Notes under the pieces: model-generated
Database searches by the model: none
What the model saw: only the letters and a program-made list of their open reading frames with translations
Told to the model about the DNA's origin: nothing
Part shown: piece after piece, positions 192 to 15,268 of the stretch
Layout of the letters: each line of letters begins with the position of its first letter
Numbering within the stretch: position 1 is the first letter of the stretch
DNA from: a virus
Virus genome (UHGV): UHGV-1570996
DNA: 19,300 nucleotides
Direction: 5' to 3' (one strand)
Program-made: the position numbers and the translations under genes

Positions 192-449
192 ATGATGTAC
201 AGCAAATACGATGAGGCGCAGTTCCACTTGAGGCTTACGCACGAGTTGCACGCTAAGATTAAGCAGCGTGCAAAAATGAATAACAGGTCTATCAATTCCG
301 AAATTGTGGCTACGATGGAAGAATCACTCTCCAAACCATCACCTGTAAGCGGGTATCGTGATGAAGAAGAGAGGCTGGCCTCATTAATCTCGGAACGAGT
401 AAAAGAAGTTGCGGCTGATATCCTTAGAAAAGAAAAAACCCGCGATTAA
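192..449 (+). CDS. mnt: Mnt-like ribbon-helix-helix repressor (homolog of P22 immI Mnt)
   Basis: Translation from ATG 192 (GTGAGG RBS 6 nt upstream) gives about 85 aa; N-terminal strand-helix region FHLRL...NNRSINSEIV matches the Arc/Mnt RHH pattern (recalled P22 Mnt GRSMNSEL); C-terminal SKPSPVSGYRDEEERLA closely matches recalled P22 Mnt SKPSPVTGYRNDAERLA. The ORF-track start at 111 is judged an upstream extension. Confidence 0.7.
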   Translation: MMYSKYDEAQFHLRLTHELHAKIKQRAKMNNRSINSEIVATMEESLSKPSPVSGYRDEEERLASLISERVKEVAADILRKEKTRD

Positions 450-463: not shown

Positions 464-685
464 TTAGTTATCAAAAAGTCCGTACGTTTCTTCTTCTTCA
501 GGTGTAAGGGGAAGAATCTCTACTCTATCTATAGATACCTTTTCAATGTACCCATGAGGTCTACTTAAAATTAAAGCTCTCTCATGCCACAGAACTCCAA
601 GAATGTGATACCTTCCAGCATCGCCTTTTACCCTGGCTCTTCCTTTGATTCTTGGCGGCATAATGCCATATTTTTTCTTTGCCAT
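464..685 (-). CDS. Hypothetical 73-aa protein, translationally coupled to the upstream antirepressor gene
   Basis: ORF with ATG at 685-683 overlapping the TAA stop of the upstream gene by one base (TAATG); basic N-terminus, acidic C-terminus; no family recognised. Confidence 0.5.
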   Translation of the reverse strand: MAKKKYGIMPPRIKGRARVKGDAGRYHILGVLWHERALILSRPHGYIEKVSIDRVEILPLTPEEEETYGLFDN

Positions 686-1413
686 TATGCAACATTACTC
701 CCATGAATCAGGTGTTGTAGTGCTTTAACACCTTCCGCATTGTAGCGGAATGCTTCCACCTGTTTGCTGGAATGCGCAGATTTATCCAGGAAGAACTTAC
801 CGTACTGCTCAGTTTTGAGGTTGTTTGCGTTAGCAATGCGACCAATCTTGTTGGCCGTTACTCCAAGCTGCTCTGCAACCTCCCCTGCTGAGTAGTAATG
901 CTCTTCTATTGCTGGAAGAGGTATTGCATTAAAACCAACGATCGGGTTGATTATGCTTGCTGCCGCAGTCTGCTTTGCTTCCGGCGCAAGATTTGGCATC
1001 AAATCGAACAGATTGGTAACAGCTTCAACCGTCATTTTCAATGTTCGCGCCTGGCGATACTCAACAAGTCCACTAGACGATTTACCGCTTTTAATGTGCG
1101 CTTCTTGCATACTTTCAAGTTGGTCTACAAGTGAGCGGCGAACAGCTTTAGATTCACGAGCAGCCACTCGAAGGGCTTGCTTAATTGACATAACAACTTT
1201 TTCAGAAGTTGTCTTGTTTGATTTTTGAACTACGAAAATTTCGTAGTGCTCACCTTCAAGTTCATCCTTAATGCGTGCAATAAAGTCGTTATTGCGGACT
1301 TCTTTTTCCCCGCACTGTCTACGAGCATGATTGACCATCTCTAACAGGTACTGGCTATCAATGGTTTTATCCGTGACAACGGATCCGATGTTTGCTACAT
1401 TCTTAAAAGTCAT
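685..1413 (-). CDS. Antirepressor-family protein, Rha-like N-terminal region with KilA-C-like C-terminal domain (ant2)
   Basis: Start chosen at ATG 1413 (AAGGAA RBS 7-8 nt upstream) rather than the track start 1464; C-terminal YYSAGEVAEQLGVTANKIGRIANANNLKTEQYGKFF resembles the KilA-C/ANT C-terminal domain; N-terminal TIDSQYLLEMVNHARRQCGEKEVRNNDFIARI resembles phage Rha regulatory proteins. Confidence 0.6.
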   Translation of the reverse strand: MTFKNVANIGSVVTDKTIDSQYLLEMVNHARRQCGEKEVRNNDFIARIKDELEGEHYEIFVVQKSNKTTSEKVVMSIKQALRVAARESKAVRRSLVDQLESMQEAHIKSGKSSSGLVEYRQARTLKMTVEAVTNLFDLMPNLAPEAKQTAAASIINPIVGFNAIPLPAIEEHYYSAGEVAEQLGVTANKIGRIANANNLKTEQYGKFFLDKSAHSSKQVEAFRYNAEGVKALQHLIHGSNVA

Positions 1414-1482
1414 TAGGCATTCCTTATGTGGTAGTAAGGGTGTGACATAGGCCGCCAGCAGCACACTGGCGGTTTTCTTTTT
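1408..1482 (+). ncRNA. Candidate sar-like antisense RNA covering the RBS and start codon of ant2
   Basis: Plus-strand -35 GTGACA (1373-1378), 17-bp spacer, extended -10 TGcTACATT (1393-1401), then a plus-oriented hairpin plus T-run at 1451-1482; no plus-strand gene is present here. Confidence 0.3.
1451..1482 (+). terminator. Plus-strand rho-independent terminator in the ant1-ant2 intergenic spacer
   Basis: GCCGCCAG-cagcaca-CTGGCGG stem-loop followed by TTTTCTTTTT on the plus strand; on the minus strand the same hairpin is preceded by an A-tract with no U-tract after it, so it is oriented for plus-strand transcripts. Confidence 0.45.
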
Positions 1483-1501
1483 GCGCCGTCCGGCGCACCA
1501 A

Positions 1502-2128
1502 TCAATGAATCCATTCCTCGCCGCGCAGTTTTGCCAGCATTGGCTGAGCGTTCTTTACGACAAAATTGTTGGTATCAAGATTCTTCATTTCACGAAGAAG
1601 TGATTTCTTGGTTTCTTCTGACATGTAGCGAGTCTCATATGCAATATCGTAAATCCTTCCTGAAAGCTCAGAACCAATTTGCTTCATTCCTGGGTAGATG
1701 TGTTTGCACATTTGTTGACTCTTCTCCATCCACAATTGTAAGTAGCAGAGATTAACCAGTTCTTCGTCAGTAAACTGTTTTGCAATCGGTGAGCATTCTG
1801 CCTGCCGATCCAAAATATCCAGCACCCAGCGGCGGAACTCTTTGGCTACCGGAGTGCGAGCAAACATCGCGATTAGGTGGGCACCGCGTAGTGAGAAAAC
1901 TCGCACTTTTTTGCGATAATTTCCTGAGGTACTCACTTCGAGTACCTGAGTCATTCCGGCGCTAAATTCATCGCTATACTTGTTATAAATCATTGTTACT
2001 GCACGACTATTTGCGTATTTAAGTGCAGATGCAATATTAGATGATGTAAACCAAACACCATGCATATCACGGGTGGGCACCAACTCAACTCCGTGGAAGT
2101 TGTAATCTGATTTTGCTACAATATTCAT
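1502..2128 (-). CDS. Antirepressor-family protein with AntA/BRO-N-like N-terminal domain (ant1)
   Basis: Start chosen at ATG 2128 (AAGGAAA RBS 7 nt upstream), giving about 208 aa beginning MNIVAKSDYNFHGVELVPTRDMHGVWFTSSNIASALKY, typical of the N-terminal domain of phage antirepressors; the track start 2233 would overlap the arc ORF. Confidence 0.6.
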   Translation of the reverse strand: MNIVAKSDYNFHGVELVPTRDMHGVWFTSSNIASALKYANSRAVTMIYNKYSDEFSAGMTQVLEVSTSGNYRKKVRVFSLRGAHLIAMFARTPVAKEFRRWVLDILDRQAECSPIAKQFTDEELVNLCYLQLWMEKSQQMCKHIYPGMKQIGSELSGRIYDIAYETRYMSEETKKSLLREMKNLDTNNFVVKNAQPMLAKLRGEEWIH

Positions 2129-2205
2129 GTTAGTTTCCTTGCATACGGTTACTGACATAGAGGCCCGGTTTGTGTTCGCGCACTGCCGGGCTTCACTATT
2201 TTTAT
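2129..2205 (+). ncRNA. Candidate sar-like antisense RNA complementary to the ant1 RBS and arc-ant1 spacer
   Basis: Plus-strand extended -10 TGcTACAAT (2114-2122) just inside the ant1 start predicts a TSS near 2129; plus-oriented hairpin GCCCGG...CCGGGC (2163-2190) followed by TTCACTATTTTTATT; arrangement parallels P22 sar as recalled. Confidence 0.35.
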
Positions 2206-2375
2206 TGGATGACAACATCGCCCTTTGCCTCAAGTTTCATCAATAACTCCATTCGATAAGCTATCTCTGCCTGAATTGACCTATGGCATCTTTTTGCTGA
2301 TTCGCGGATATGTGAATCAACCTTTTCTGTAAAACGAACCTGACGCGGCTTGATGGAAGATATCTTTTCAGTCAT
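2202..2375 (-). CDS. arc: Arc-like ribbon-helix-helix repressor (57 aa; below the ORF-track size cutoff)
   Basis: Manual translation from ATG 2375 (AGGAG RBS, 6-nt spacing) to TAA 2204-2202: MTEKISSIKPRQVRFTEKVDSHIRESAKRCHRSIQAEIAYRMELLMKLEAKGDVVIQ; strand QVRF then two helices with an RS-x-x-EI motif as in P22 Arc (GRSVNSEI); lies immediately upstream of ant1 as arc does in P22. Confidence 0.65.
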   Translation of the reverse strand: MTEKISSIKPRQVRFTEKVDSHIRESAKRCHRSIQAEIAYRMELLMKLEAKGDVVIQ

Positions 2376-2424
2376 TATGCACTCCTGTTTTTGAAAAACT
2401 CATAATCTCACTTTTTGCAGTTTG

Positions 2425-2453
2425 ATTATTCACTCACACTCAGTATGAGTCAA
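2425..2453 (-). promoter_or_regulatory. Candidate Pant-like promoter with operator repeats in the spacer
   Basis: Minus-strand -35 TTGACT (plus 2453-2448), 17-bp spacer, -10 AATAAT (plus 2430-2425), about 45 nt upstream of arc; spacer holds tandem CACTCA CACTCA plus an inverted TGAGTCA copy (plus 2431-2453), including inverted repeat ACTCA-gta-TGAGT. Confidence 0.4.
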
Positions 2454-2474
2454 TGAATTTTTTATGGTGAACTA

Positions 2475-3116
2475 ATGAATTTTGACGATCAATTCCCATC
2501 AAGAGTATCTCTGGCAAGACAGTCCAGGGGTATGACGCAGGCGCAGTTGTCAAAATTAGCTGGTGTTGTTCAACGTCAAATAGCTGCATACGAGGGTGGT
2601 GAGGCTAAACCACGGCTTCGTGTATTGCAGGCATTAGCCAACGCATTAGGTACTACGGCTGAGTGGTTAGCTCTAGGTGAAGGTCAGGGTCCAGGAACAA
2701 AAAACGTCATGCCTGACGTTCTGGTAAAGCAAATACCAATTCTCAAACTAGATGAAGTTATGCATTACCTAAACACAGGTGAACATTCATCGTCTAGATT
2801 TCATCCGGCAATATACAATGTTGGTGACTCTGCATTTGCATTGACTATTGAAGGTGAAGCTATGACTACAAGTTCAGGTATTAGCTTTCCCAGAGGATCG
2901 GTTGTCACGTTCAGCCCTCTAGTAAAAGCTAAAAGCAAAGATTATGTAATAGCATCATTGGATAAAGAGCAAATATTGAGCTTCAAACAGGTTTACATTG
3001 GTGAAATAGAGACAAACCTAGTATCCCTAAACCCAATGTATCCTAATATTCTTGTTAGAAATGAAGATGTTAGTATTTTGGCAACCGCAGTTTACCTTGA
3101 AATCCCGTTGCTTTGA
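2475..3116 (+). CDS. cI/C2-like repressor: N-terminal HTH (XRE type) and C-terminal LexA/S24-like domain with catalytic Ser apparently replaced by Ala
   Basis: 213-aa ORF with GGTGA RBS; HTH region MTQAQLSKLAGVVQRQIAAYEGGEAKPRLRVLQALANALG; C-terminal EGEAMTTSSGISFPRGSVV aligns with lambda cI EGNSMTAPTGSKPSFPDG (Ser to Ala at the nucleophile), FKQV aligns with cI FKKL, and LNPMYPNI with LNPQYPMI. Confidence 0.8.
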   Translation: MNFDDQFPSRVSLARQSRGMTQAQLSKLAGVVQRQIAAYEGGEAKPRLRVLQALANALGTTAEWLALGEGQGPGTKNVMPDVLVKQIPILKLDEVMHYLNTGEHSSSRFHPAIYNVGDSAFALTIEGEAMTTSSGISFPRGSVVTFSPLVKAKSKDYVIASLDKEQILSFKQVYIGEIETNLVSLNPMYPNILVRNEDVSILATAVYLEIPLL

Positions 3117-3176
3117 TATCCTTTAGGAAGCGACACATTATCATCTGGTATCCTGCTCAAAACTAAGGAGGTTGGT

Positions 3177-3404
3177 GTGAAGCGATGGTTCCTCATAATT
3201 ACTGTTTTCGCGATCATTTACGCTATTTTCCCTGCATTAAAAGCACCAATGCAAATAATTTCACTAGCAATAATTGCAATTGGTGCTTTCATTACAGTAT
3301 CCGTACTTGTGTTTAAGGTTTTAAAGTTTTTAGTTTGGCTATCAAAAGATGATGGATGCAAAGTTCATCAAGAAAAAGAAGGCAAAATAACCAAAGTTGA
3401 CTAA
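3177..3404 (+). CDS. Small 2-TM membrane protein (75 aa) downstream of the repressor gene
   Basis: GTG start at 3177 preceded by AAGGAGG with 6-nt spacing; two hydrophobic helices (FLIITVFAIIYAIF and IISLAIIAIGAFITVSVLVF) and a charged C-terminus; its stop overlaps the stop of convergent gp16. Confidence 0.5.
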   Translation: MKRWFLIITVFAIIYAIFPALKAPMQIISLAIIAIGAFITVSVLVFKVLKFLVWLSKDDGCKVHQEKEGKITKVD

Positions 3405-13069: not shown

Positions 13070-15268
13070 TTACTGCTGTGGTTGTTGCTGAGTTGATTTT
13101 TGCAGGATGCTGCTGATGTCCATTCGTTGTGCATGGCCCTGTGCCTGACTTTTCAGGACAAGCTCTGCATCAGCACGGGCATTGTCTCCTTGCTGTTGCT
13201 GGAACTGTCCGAGCAGTTTCAGCGCCTCACGGATATCAGATTTTTGCTGGCTATCGGCAGATGCGAGGATTTTCACAACATTTGCCGCTGCAACCTGAGC
13301 ATCAGTCTGTGCCTGGAATGCTTTAACCTGAATGGCTGCCTGTTCGTTCTGCGCTTTCTGCAATTCAGCCTGACCAGCAAGAAGCTGACCTTGCGCAGCA
13401 ACCATAGCCGGATCTGGCTGACTGGCCTGTTGTTGTTTCGCCTGCTCAACCATTTGCTGCTCTTCTGGCGTTCTCGGCTTGATAACTCCAGACAGAAGCA
13501 ACTGATTGCGGTTGTATTCTTTAAGGTCGTCCATCCCTTCGCCGTCCATATTGTCGAGAATCATCGACGATACAAGGTCGTGCTTCGGCGTTCCTGGTGG
13601 GATAAGTGCCAGCATGGAAAGTAACGACTTAACCGTTGCATCACGGCGAGTAGCGAACGACTGACCGACATCGACAGTCACTTCATAGTTACCCTGCGAA
13701 AGGTCGTTAAGCGCGATAACCTGCCCTGTCTGACGGTCAACCACTTCACCAGTCATCAGCGCCACATCATCGCTGCCATCCTCATTAACGATGCGCATTG
13801 GCGTATCGCTGCCATAGACTTCACGAGCCATAGAAAGCCACACGACGCCAGCACGGCGCATGGATTTAGCCATGTTGTCCATGTAGATATAGGACTGCGT
13901 GTCCATCCGGTTAAAGATGCTATCAACGGTATCGGTGGCGACGTTGCTCGGCATGTTCTCAAGCTGCGACGCACCTGTAATTTGCTGAATAGCCGTTCCG
14001 GTGTACTGCAATAGCCCGGCAAGAGCTGGAGGCATTTGTGTCGGAGGTGTCCAGCCAGCAACCTGAGCTTCTGAAATGACCGTTCCGTTTTTGTCCTTCT
14101 TGCTGGTCATAGGAAGAACTGCTGGTCTTTTCTTATTCCTCTCTGCCCAGTGATTCATTAATGGACCGGGAATGAAATCAACATCCACGATAGGAATGCC
14201 ATCACCGCCCGCCTGAGTAGCGTTATCTGCAATCATGGAAACCATCAGGTTCTCAAGACGCTGTGCATCCATCGCTTTTGCTGCGTGACCTTCGATTCGC
14301 TCCTGATTATCAACAAATGATCGACGCCCATATACCGGGATGAGAGGAATATGCTCTCCCGGAATACGCTTCGGTTCTTCCAGCCATTCAGCGCCAGACA
14401 GAAGGCCGCAATAAACGCGGCGTTTCTTCACTGTCCGCTCACCGATCAGCTCGAATGCACCATCGGTTAGCTCGTCAACAATATCTTTGATCTGTTCTTC
14501 ATCATAGATTGCCGTTTCTCCGCTGACAGGATTGCGCCACGCCGTGAGCTTCACCTTCTCTATGCGAACTTCGTAGTAGCGTCCAACATAGATGGCATCA
14601 GGTGTTGACCAGTCATATTGAGTACCAGTGTCATCACGAGAAAGACTTGCCGCGATGGAATCAGGGTATTCAGCCTCGAACGCTTTAGGCGTCATGGAGA
14701 ACATTTCCATAGCCCACATAGCATCAGAGCGGTCATATTGCTTGCTGTCCTGATCGAAGAAGACGCATGTCGCCGGGTCGTAAACAGGAAGAAGACTGAT
14801 GCGTCGCTGCTCGTTACTCGGATCCATTTCATCTTCGTAATCGGCACACATGCGGAAACAACCGAATCCACCCGTTACGGCATCATCAAATGCGTTATCA
14901 CACGCTTCGCCACCGGATGTTTCCTGATAGTCAGCGCGGAATTTGCCGTTCATTTTTTCGGCTAACGCTTCCGATGCCTTGTCATCCTTCGGCCTGAATT
15001 TAACGCTGATGCGATTCTGTCGATACTCGCCAATGATGCGATCACATTCACGGGCAATCTTATTTAGTTCAAAGCGCGGGTAATGCTCAAACCTGCCTTC
15101 ATCAAATGAGTAACCAGCGTTTGTGCTGCCTTCCCACTGTGCACCGGACACCCTGACGAAACGTTGAGCCTCAATAATCTGCTCACGCATATCCTGCGTT
15201 GCTGACCAGGCATTATCAAAGTTGCACAGCACCTTGCGATGCCAGTCAGTCATCTTTTTTTCTGCCAT
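13070..15268 (-). CDS. Portal protein (P22 gp1-like)
   Basis: 732 aa (P22 portal about 725 aa); directly downstream of large terminase; Gln-rich helical C-terminus like the P22 portal barrel. Confidence 0.85.
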   Translation of the reverse strand: MAEKKMTDWHRKVLCNFDNAWSATQDMREQIIEAQRFVRVSGAQWEGSTNAGYSFDEGRFEHYPRFELNKIARECDRIIGEYRQNRISVKFRPKDDKASEALAEKMNGKFRADYQETSGGEACDNAFDDAVTGGFGCFRMCADYEDEMDPSNEQRRISLLPVYDPATCVFFDQDSKQYDRSDAMWAMEMFSMTPKAFEAEYPDSIAASLSRDDTGTQYDWSTPDAIYVGRYYEVRIEKVKLTAWRNPVSGETAIYDEEQIKDIVDELTDGAFELIGERTVKKRRVYCGLLSGAEWLEEPKRIPGEHIPLIPVYGRRSFVDNQERIEGHAAKAMDAQRLENLMVSMIADNATQAGGDGIPIVDVDFIPGPLMNHWAERNKKRPAVLPMTSKKDKNGTVISEAQVAGWTPPTQMPPALAGLLQYTGTAIQQITGASQLENMPSNVATDTVDSIFNRMDTQSYIYMDNMAKSMRRAGVVWLSMAREVYGSDTPMRIVNEDGSDDVALMTGEVVDRQTGQVIALNDLSQGNYEVTVDVGQSFATRRDATVKSLLSMLALIPPGTPKHDLVSSMILDNMDGEGMDDLKEYNRNQLLLSGVIKPRTPEEQQMVEQAKQQQASQPDPAMVAAQGQLLAGQAELQKAQNEQAAIQVKAFQAQTDAQVAAANVVKILASADSQQKSDIREALKLLGQFQQQQGDNARADAELVLKSQAQGHAQRMDISSILQKSTQQQPQQ

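Follow-up and report, generated by a model that had tools for sequence, protein, structure and literature searches.

The question raised by this locus is whether the short gap in front of an antirepressor gene of an E. coli prophage encodes, on the strand opposite to the gene, a small RNA of the type known as sar in phage P22. A unit of this kind, at the junction between arc and ant1, had been proposed in an initial annotation of the window (the whole stretch of 19,300 nucleotides analysed, from UHGV virus genome UHGV-1570996). Published work describes sar as an antisense RNA that pairs with the mRNA of ant and reduces Ant (PMC11016777, PMC13397905). It is common in the immI regions of P22-like phages (PMC12111858, PMC2629481), and reads covering it have been reported in the sequencing of P22 infection (PMC13397905).

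The ant cluster and its genes

In the window lies an immI-like ant cluster, or "ant moron", belonging to an E. coli prophage of the P22-like (Lederbergvirus) type. The closest phage record is Escherichia phage JEP4, 98% identical over positions 1400-3180, and 27 complete E. coli genomes contain 80% or more of the region 2080-2480, with identities of about 98.5-100%; in E. coli E66 all 401 bases are identical. The cluster is flanked by ejection-protein genes (6852-5509 and 5524-3401, minus strand) and, in JEP4, by the tailspike gene. It sits within the late operon, and the window strand runs counter to the direction of that operon. Late transcripts traverse the ant moron en route to the tailspike gene (PMC2629481).

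A promoter scan located a Pant-like promoter, TTGACT-17-AATAAT (2453-2425, minus strand, 10 of 12 matches), placed to drive three genes on the same strand: an arc-position ORF of 57 aa, possibly coding for a ribbon-helix-helix protein (2375-2202); ant1, coding for an antirepressor-like protein of 208 aa, in which Pfam recognises Bro-N and P22_AR_C domains (2128-1502); and ant2, annotated as KilA in JEP4 (1413-685). A further ORF of 73 aa spans 685-464 (minus strand). At L003, a near-identical locus, the RefSeq ant gene is 627 nt long and corresponds to 1502-2128 of the window.

The Pant-like promoter is divergent from a gene that begins at 2475 and encodes a C2/LexA-like repressor with HTH and S24 peptidase domains (2475-3116, plus strand, Pfam). 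This repressor, with its self-cleaving S24 domain, occupies the place of P22 mnt, opposite the Pant-like promoter; the arrangement suggests that ant expression could respond to SOS-induced self-cleavage of the repressor. A Mnt-like Arc-domain protein is encoded at the opposite end of the cluster, by a gene that converges on the ant operon (195-449, plus strand, Pfam). Between the repressor and the ejection-protein genes, where P22 carries sieA, lies a hydrophobic ORF of 75 aa (3177-3404, plus strand), for which no family match was found.

In the initial annotation the junction was named arc-ant1. The position, between the arc-position ORF and ant1, stands, but the ORF is not demonstrably Arc. 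When compared to Pfam, it matched ParD_like alone, at 19.8 bits and under the cut-off of 23, and the Arc family PF03869 was not matched. BLASTP found no similarity to P22 Arc, and none to the ORF of the Arc family at L003; in single-linkage clustering the arc-position ORF joins the ORFs found at the Arc position via intermediates only. L003 is otherwise near-identical to the window, with a recombination boundary at the 3' end of sar, at about 2208. The ant moron of the HS-1 type was said to be without arc in a 2008 paper (PMC2629481); strain LAM_HS carries the region of the arc-position ORF at 99.8% identity. At L025, L032, L039, L057 and L115 the arc-position gene is a small Cys-rich ORF (CxxC...CxxC), not of the ribbon-helix-helix type, and the sar cassette is intact. 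The annotations of JEP4 and of the RefSeq prophages list no RNA at the sar-like unit.

The predicted RNA and its putative promoter

The arc-position ORF and ant1 are separated by 72 nt. The sar-like antisense RNA predicted in this gap lies on the plus strand, at about 2129-2203, both ends being inferred. Its 5' end, G2129, adjoins the ant1 start codon, 7 nt past the -10 sequence, and the 5' end of P22 sar (15090) is likewise placed. A transcript of about 75 nt, covering the initiation region of ant1, had been anticipated; the geometry predicts about 71-78 nt from G2129. The target would be the ant1 translation initiation region (2126-2140, minus strand), made up of the AUG (2128-2126), a 6-nt spacer and the Shine-Dalgarno sequence AAGGAA (2140-2135). 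As the two are products of opposite strands of the same locus, complementarity between the predicted RNA and the ant1 leader is perfect.

The plus-strand RNA folds into two hairpins. Stem-loop 1 (2129-2157) has arms at 2129-2134 and 2152-2157 and a 17-nt loop, in which the anti-Shine-Dalgarno sequence UUCCUU (2135-2140) is contained; it is the same helix as in the Rfam sar consensus structure. Stem-loop 2 (2160-2194) is a G+C-rich putative terminator hairpin, with bulges in the stem, and is followed by the 3' tail ACUAUUUUUAUU (2195-2206), whose U-run (2199-2203) shares bases with the stop codon (2202-2204) of the upstream ORF. A plus-strand hairpin with a T-run, past the ant1 RBS, had been reported at 2163-2205; it is present, with limits refined to the stem and U-run just given. 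As a rho-independent terminator it has a strong G+C-rich stem, but the U-run is 4 nt away; it is not listed in the consensus terminator scan, because the T-run begins at that distance past the stem and the stem is bulged. The same hairpin was also considered as a terminator or attenuator of the sense transcript, and this was ruled out: the minus strand has no U-run and folds weakly.

The folding energy predicted for the plus-strand RNA 2127-2205 is -35 kcal/mol (z -5.5), a value reached by none of 200 shuffles, whereas the complementary strand gives a z of -1.85. For the RNA 2129-2203, the values are -33.3 kcal/mol, versus -19.5 for the complement. The latter RNA was scored at 82.6 bits by CM R1, the sar model, and at 34.5 bits by CM R2, which was built from the anti-icd RNAs described below, independently of the window. 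The region 2127-2206 is the sole strong match of CM R2 in the window.

The extended -10 sequence TGcTACAAT (2114-2122, plus strand), here called the putative Psar, was found where the initial annotation had located it, just inside the start of ant1, and falls within codons 3-5. The TG is at 2114-2115; the hexamer TACAAT (2117-2122) corresponds exactly to ant1 codons 3-4 (ATT GTA), and TGC to codon 5 (GCA). The weak -35-like hexamer TGGAAG (2094-2099, plus strand), as read from the sequence, is located 17 bp upstream of the -10, and is aligned in position with the start of the annotated Psar of P22. The putative Psar is omitted by the promoter scan because its -35 is poor. The -10 pattern TGNTANAAT occurs once in the window, versus 2.8 occurrences expected, and is not significant alone.

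Relation to P22 sar and natural variants

In the P22 record, arc is annotated at 14861-15022, the sar RNA at 15021-15090 on the opposite strand, its terminator at 15021-15058 and its promoter at 15097-15125, while ant starts at 15091. The P22 promoter is thus contained in the first ant codons, and the RNA begins at the base beside the ATG and occupies all of the space between the two cistrons, its 3' end falling at the arc stop. The geometry of the window is the same, with a gap of 72 nt instead of 68. Shared features include the position between the arc-position gene and ant, the orientation, the extended -10 in ant codons 3-5, an RNA of about 70 nt with two hairpins, the anti-Shine-Dalgarno sequence in loop 1 and a 3' end at the upstream stop. 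The P22 -10 is TGcTATACT, 7 nt before the start G, and the window sequence TGcTACAAT aligns with the P22 Psar. Feature by feature, the proposed resemblance to the design of P22 sar was thus borne out.

Other features differ. The P22 tail, AACUUU, is weaker than the U-run of the window, and stem-loop 2 of the window is another allele, 71% identical to that of P22 and 87% to one anti-icd allele. The N-terminal domain of P22 Ant is unrelated to the Bro-N domain of Ant1. The protein encoded upstream of sar is Arc in P22 and is not recognisably Arc in the window; mnt is replaced by the C2/LexA-like repressor facing Pant; and the window has a second sar-like unit ahead of ant2.

Direct BLASTN comparison of the window with P22 returned one 24-nt block only, TTGCTAyAmTATTCATGTTrGTTT, and homology was therefore assessed by global alignment with shuffled controls and through intermediate sequences. 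In the global alignment of the 113-nt units, 70 of 101 positions are identical (69%, z 9.2); the score is 45, as compared to 8.6 +/- 4.0 for dinucleotide shuffles, none of which, out of 2000, scored as high. The alignment with the P22 sar region had been put forward, together with the initial proposal, as a check. Flanks of equal length scored 8 on the ant side, at background, and 21 on the arc side, above the shuffle mean and below the highest shuffle (29). Ant1 resembles P22 Ant in the C-terminal P22_AR_C domain only (29% identity over 69 aa). Judged by these alignments, the window unit is homologous to P22 sar, and the likeness does not derive from the flanking proteins.

The Rfam sar model, RF00262, found nothing in the window at the gathering threshold of 43 bits, and nothing at E <= 10 within 1900-2600, while it scored 97.8 bits on the P22 control. 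The window unit is therefore to be regarded as a diverged allele and not as a textbook member.

In order to collect natural variants, a retrieval pattern was derived from blocks common to P22 and the window: CATGTTRGTTT, 10-16 nt, TTACTGACA. Viral contigs contained at least 120 matching loci. The matches listed, plus the window, JEP4, NC22 and P22, correspond to 60 different regions of 147 nt, with 46 different RNAs; these variants are related sequences, not independent samples. They bridge the P22 type and the window type as a continuum, in which first and second hairpin types occur in mixed combinations: at L016, as an example, the first hairpin is of the window type and the second of the P22 type. 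The exact 78-nt sequence of the window was found at 23 loci or more. Among 14 bridging variants tested with RF00262, the threshold was reached by four, just those with a P22-like 3' hairpin; the curated family therefore spans a part of the continuum only.

In a structural alignment of the 46 variants, 99.6% of the cells are paired over all 18 pairs, the arms of stem-loop 1 being fixed by the pattern. Stem-loop 2 has 12 pairs, and compensatory changes were observed at 5 of them, as compared to 0-2 when the partners were slid by 1-3 columns. As the retrieval pattern fixed both of its arms, stem-loop 1 has no covariation support; its prediction rests on thermodynamics and on the identity with the Rfam consensus helix. 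In all 41 variants compared, the plus-strand RNA folds more stably than the complementary strand, the means being -30.0 and -19.2 kcal/mol. Many pairs in the helices are G-U, which become A-C mismatches on the other strand; stability and G-U richness together point to a structure selected on the sar strand. T-rich tails past the hairpin are found in most variants. On this comparative evidence, the window unit as a whole is well beyond chance.

The promoter was not included in the retrieval pattern, so that its conservation could be evaluated without bias. Among the matches listed, 33 distinct ant 5' ends were available, and the -10 is TAyAmT in all of them. Positions 1, 2, 4 and 6 of the -10 are invariant, two of these being synonymous third-codon positions. 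At ant codons 3, 4 and 11, the third base falls on -10 position 4, on -10 position 1 and on the G of the -35-like hexamer (its third base, likewise invariant), respectively, and shows zero entropy in the 33 ends; for the other codons from 6 to 20, the third positions show entropies of 0.95-1.95 bits. The invariance spans two Ant N-terminal families, represented by 53 sequences of the P22 type and 34 of the Bro-N type, with no detectable similarity to each other. This pattern indicates that the putative Psar is under selection. Ant proteins encoded behind the sar cassette start with M-x-(S/I)-(I/V)-A, the Ala being present in 29 of 33, because the antisense -10 coincides with codons 3-4 and TGC with codon 5.

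Three other readings of these data were weighed. That the promoter is real, and that regulation is by convergent transcription (Psar against Pant or the late transcript) with an irrelevant RNA product, appears quite improbable. Interference is a general property of convergent promoters, and Psar faces Pant from about 300 bp, but the compensatory changes in the RNA and the anti-Shine-Dalgarno sequence kept in the loop argue for selection on the RNA itself. P22 sar, in addition, is described as acting by binding ant mRNA (PMC11016777, PMC13397905). RNA pairing and convergent interference are not mutually exclusive.

It is very improbable that the unit is a decaying sar relic, carried along with the ant cluster and non-functional in this E. 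coli prophage lineage. The failure of the Rfam model on the window unit would fit such a relic, as would a 3' hairpin that looks replaced relative to P22. Decay is, however, hard to reconcile with an exact RNA sequence common to so many loci, with a -10 intact in all variants, or with compensatory pairs arising inside the window-type group (as the change from G-C to A-U in L017); the fold is also stronger than that of P22-type alleles, and the U-run better than that of P22.

The last reading, in which the hairpins would function in the sense mRNA, in the stretch that separates the arc-position ORF from ant1, as a processing site, stabiliser or coupling barrier, and the promoter-like sequence of the plus strand is a by-product of Ant N-terminal codons, can draw on a complement that also folds into two hairpins, with the Shine-Dalgarno sequence near a loop, and on the location of the unit wholly inside a transcribed operon, but is extremely improbable, since the sense fold is no better than that of shuffles (z -1.85) and is the less stable one in every variant compared, many G-U pairs of the helices work on the plus strand alone, the T-run past the hairpin exists on that strand only, and bases of the promoter do not vary even at synonymous sites, whichever of two unrelated Ant N-domains is encoded there.

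From these sequence comparisons, we estimate at about 85% the probability that this cis-antisense RNA unit, of constitutive type, represents a diverged allele of P22 sar. In the mechanism proposed for such a unit, sigma-70 RNA polymerase would use the extended -10 TGcTACAAT encoded by ant1 codons 3-5 and start at about G2129, beside the ant1 start codon. Transcription would cross the 72-nt gap and stop in the U-run past the 2160-2194 hairpin, releasing an RNA of about 71-78 nt. By analogy with P22, this RNA would pair with the ant1 leader, with occlusion of the RBS and lowered synthesis of Ant1; convergent transcription may add interference with Pant. A check at the RNA level would be needed because late read-through transcripts escape the operator-bound repressors at Pant, and an RNA acting on the ant leader could silence ant on late transcripts that are beyond the reach of the repressors. 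The likely function, as deduced from P22, would be to block the translation of Ant1, including that from late-operon read-through transcripts. Upon induction of such prophages, the output of Ant1 would not track the activity of Pant alone.

Both the family to which this diverged unit belongs and its type of mechanism are known already. What it adds is that the family is broader than the curated model, and that the cassette is modular and constrains the first codons of its target. Antisense control of antirepressor synthesis would thereby reach P22-like E. coli prophages in which both ant and the arc-position gene are unrelated to those of P22. The sar cassette moves as a mosaic unit of its own, fixing the first five residues of the Ant that it precedes (M-x-S/I-I/V-A). 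As a large share of the family is missed by the Rfam sar model, it is missed by genome annotation too.

Possibly related antisense units in mobile elements

A second sar-like unit is predicted at the junction of ant1 and ant2 (1393-1485, plus strand), with an extended -10, an anti-Shine-Dalgarno sequence and a canonical terminator. The extended -10, TGcTACATT (1393-1401), falls within ant2 codons 5-7, and the terminator consists of the stem at 1449-1475 plus a T-run on the plus strand. At L014, L016, L055 and L092 the same arrangement is found, with four other genes downstream. The second unit was not detected in the search with the sar CM R1. The idea that the two units of the window are recent duplicates was rejected: their similarity is weak (z 2.8), and R1 misses the second.

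A further antisense unit was observed opposite the icd-like genes of P4-like integrase/primase islands, at L002 (2452-2550, plus strand), at L004, and at L127-L206 (about 505-600, minus strand). It is apparently undescribed: nothing turned up in the literature searched on an antisense RNA against icd-like genes, nor on a link between sar and SymR, and when the anti-icd RNA was compared to Rfam no family reached threshold, the best being SymR with 34.8 bits (gathering score 61). The unit has an extended -10, TGGTATGAT, in icd codons 2-5, and two hairpins (z -6.2), of which the first is conserved and the second is highly polymorphic, with compensatory changes. BLASTN matches were found in 1473 of 5426 complete E. 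coli genomes.

The anti-icd RNA resembles the window unit in having an extended -10 in the first codons of the target, a start opposite the ATG and two hairpins. The sar CM matches it at 33 bits; in the reverse direction, the anti-icd CM gives 34.5 bits on the window. Stem-loop 2 of the window, with its tail, is 85-87% identical to the anti-icd 3' hairpin, as determined from full-length comparisons (short end-free values, such as 1.00 to L164, are inflated and were left out), and some second-hairpin alleles of the anti-icd RNA are common to sar variants. The two units differ in the target, icd-like instead of ant, in the first hairpin, whose sequence is unrelated, and in the carrier, a satellite-like island instead of a P22-like phage. 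In our reading, sar and the anti-icd RNA genuinely share a terminator hairpin.

SymR (RF01809; L126, 2336-2412, E. coli K-12) is a cis-antisense RNA of 77 nt over the initiation region of symE, and its promoter, too, is embedded in the opening codons of its target gene; silent changes have been used to knock down its -10 (PMC1891008). A two-hairpin shape and the hairpin top GUGUUnnCGCAC are common to SymR, the anti-icd RNA and window-type sar (2126-2197). The window unit was tried as SymR and rejected, with 21.8 bits (E 0.13) versus a gathering score of 61, and ant1, not symE, as the target. The sar CM R1 gave no match to the real symR; the anti-icd CM matched SymR weakly, at 13.8 bits (E 0.022), at its exact annotated 5' end. 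Target and biology of SymR differ from those of the window unit, and the likeness may come from common descent or from convergence.

Another RNA that restrains an antirepressor, again in a second immunity region, is C4, from the immI operon c4-icd-ant of phages P1 and P7. Unlike the convergent cis-antisense RNA predicted in the window, C4 is released by cleavage of the sense transcript, and its targets are sites further downstream in the same transcript. The Rfam search gave no C4 match in the window or in L002.

It is conceivable, though we hold it only tentatively, that sar is one branch of a wider set of 5'-overlapping antisense RNAs in enterobacterial mobile elements. If so, the members would be sar, the second unit before ant2, the very common anti-icd RNA and perhaps SymR; they would be portable cassettes, which dictate the first codons of their targets and swap terminator hairpins by recombination.

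When the sar CM was run on P22 itself, the oop RNA (L005, 32266-32338, minus strand) was matched at 22.7 bits (E 0.016). Common sar alleles have the very same terminator hairpin top as P22 oop, CUGUUCCCGCAGU.
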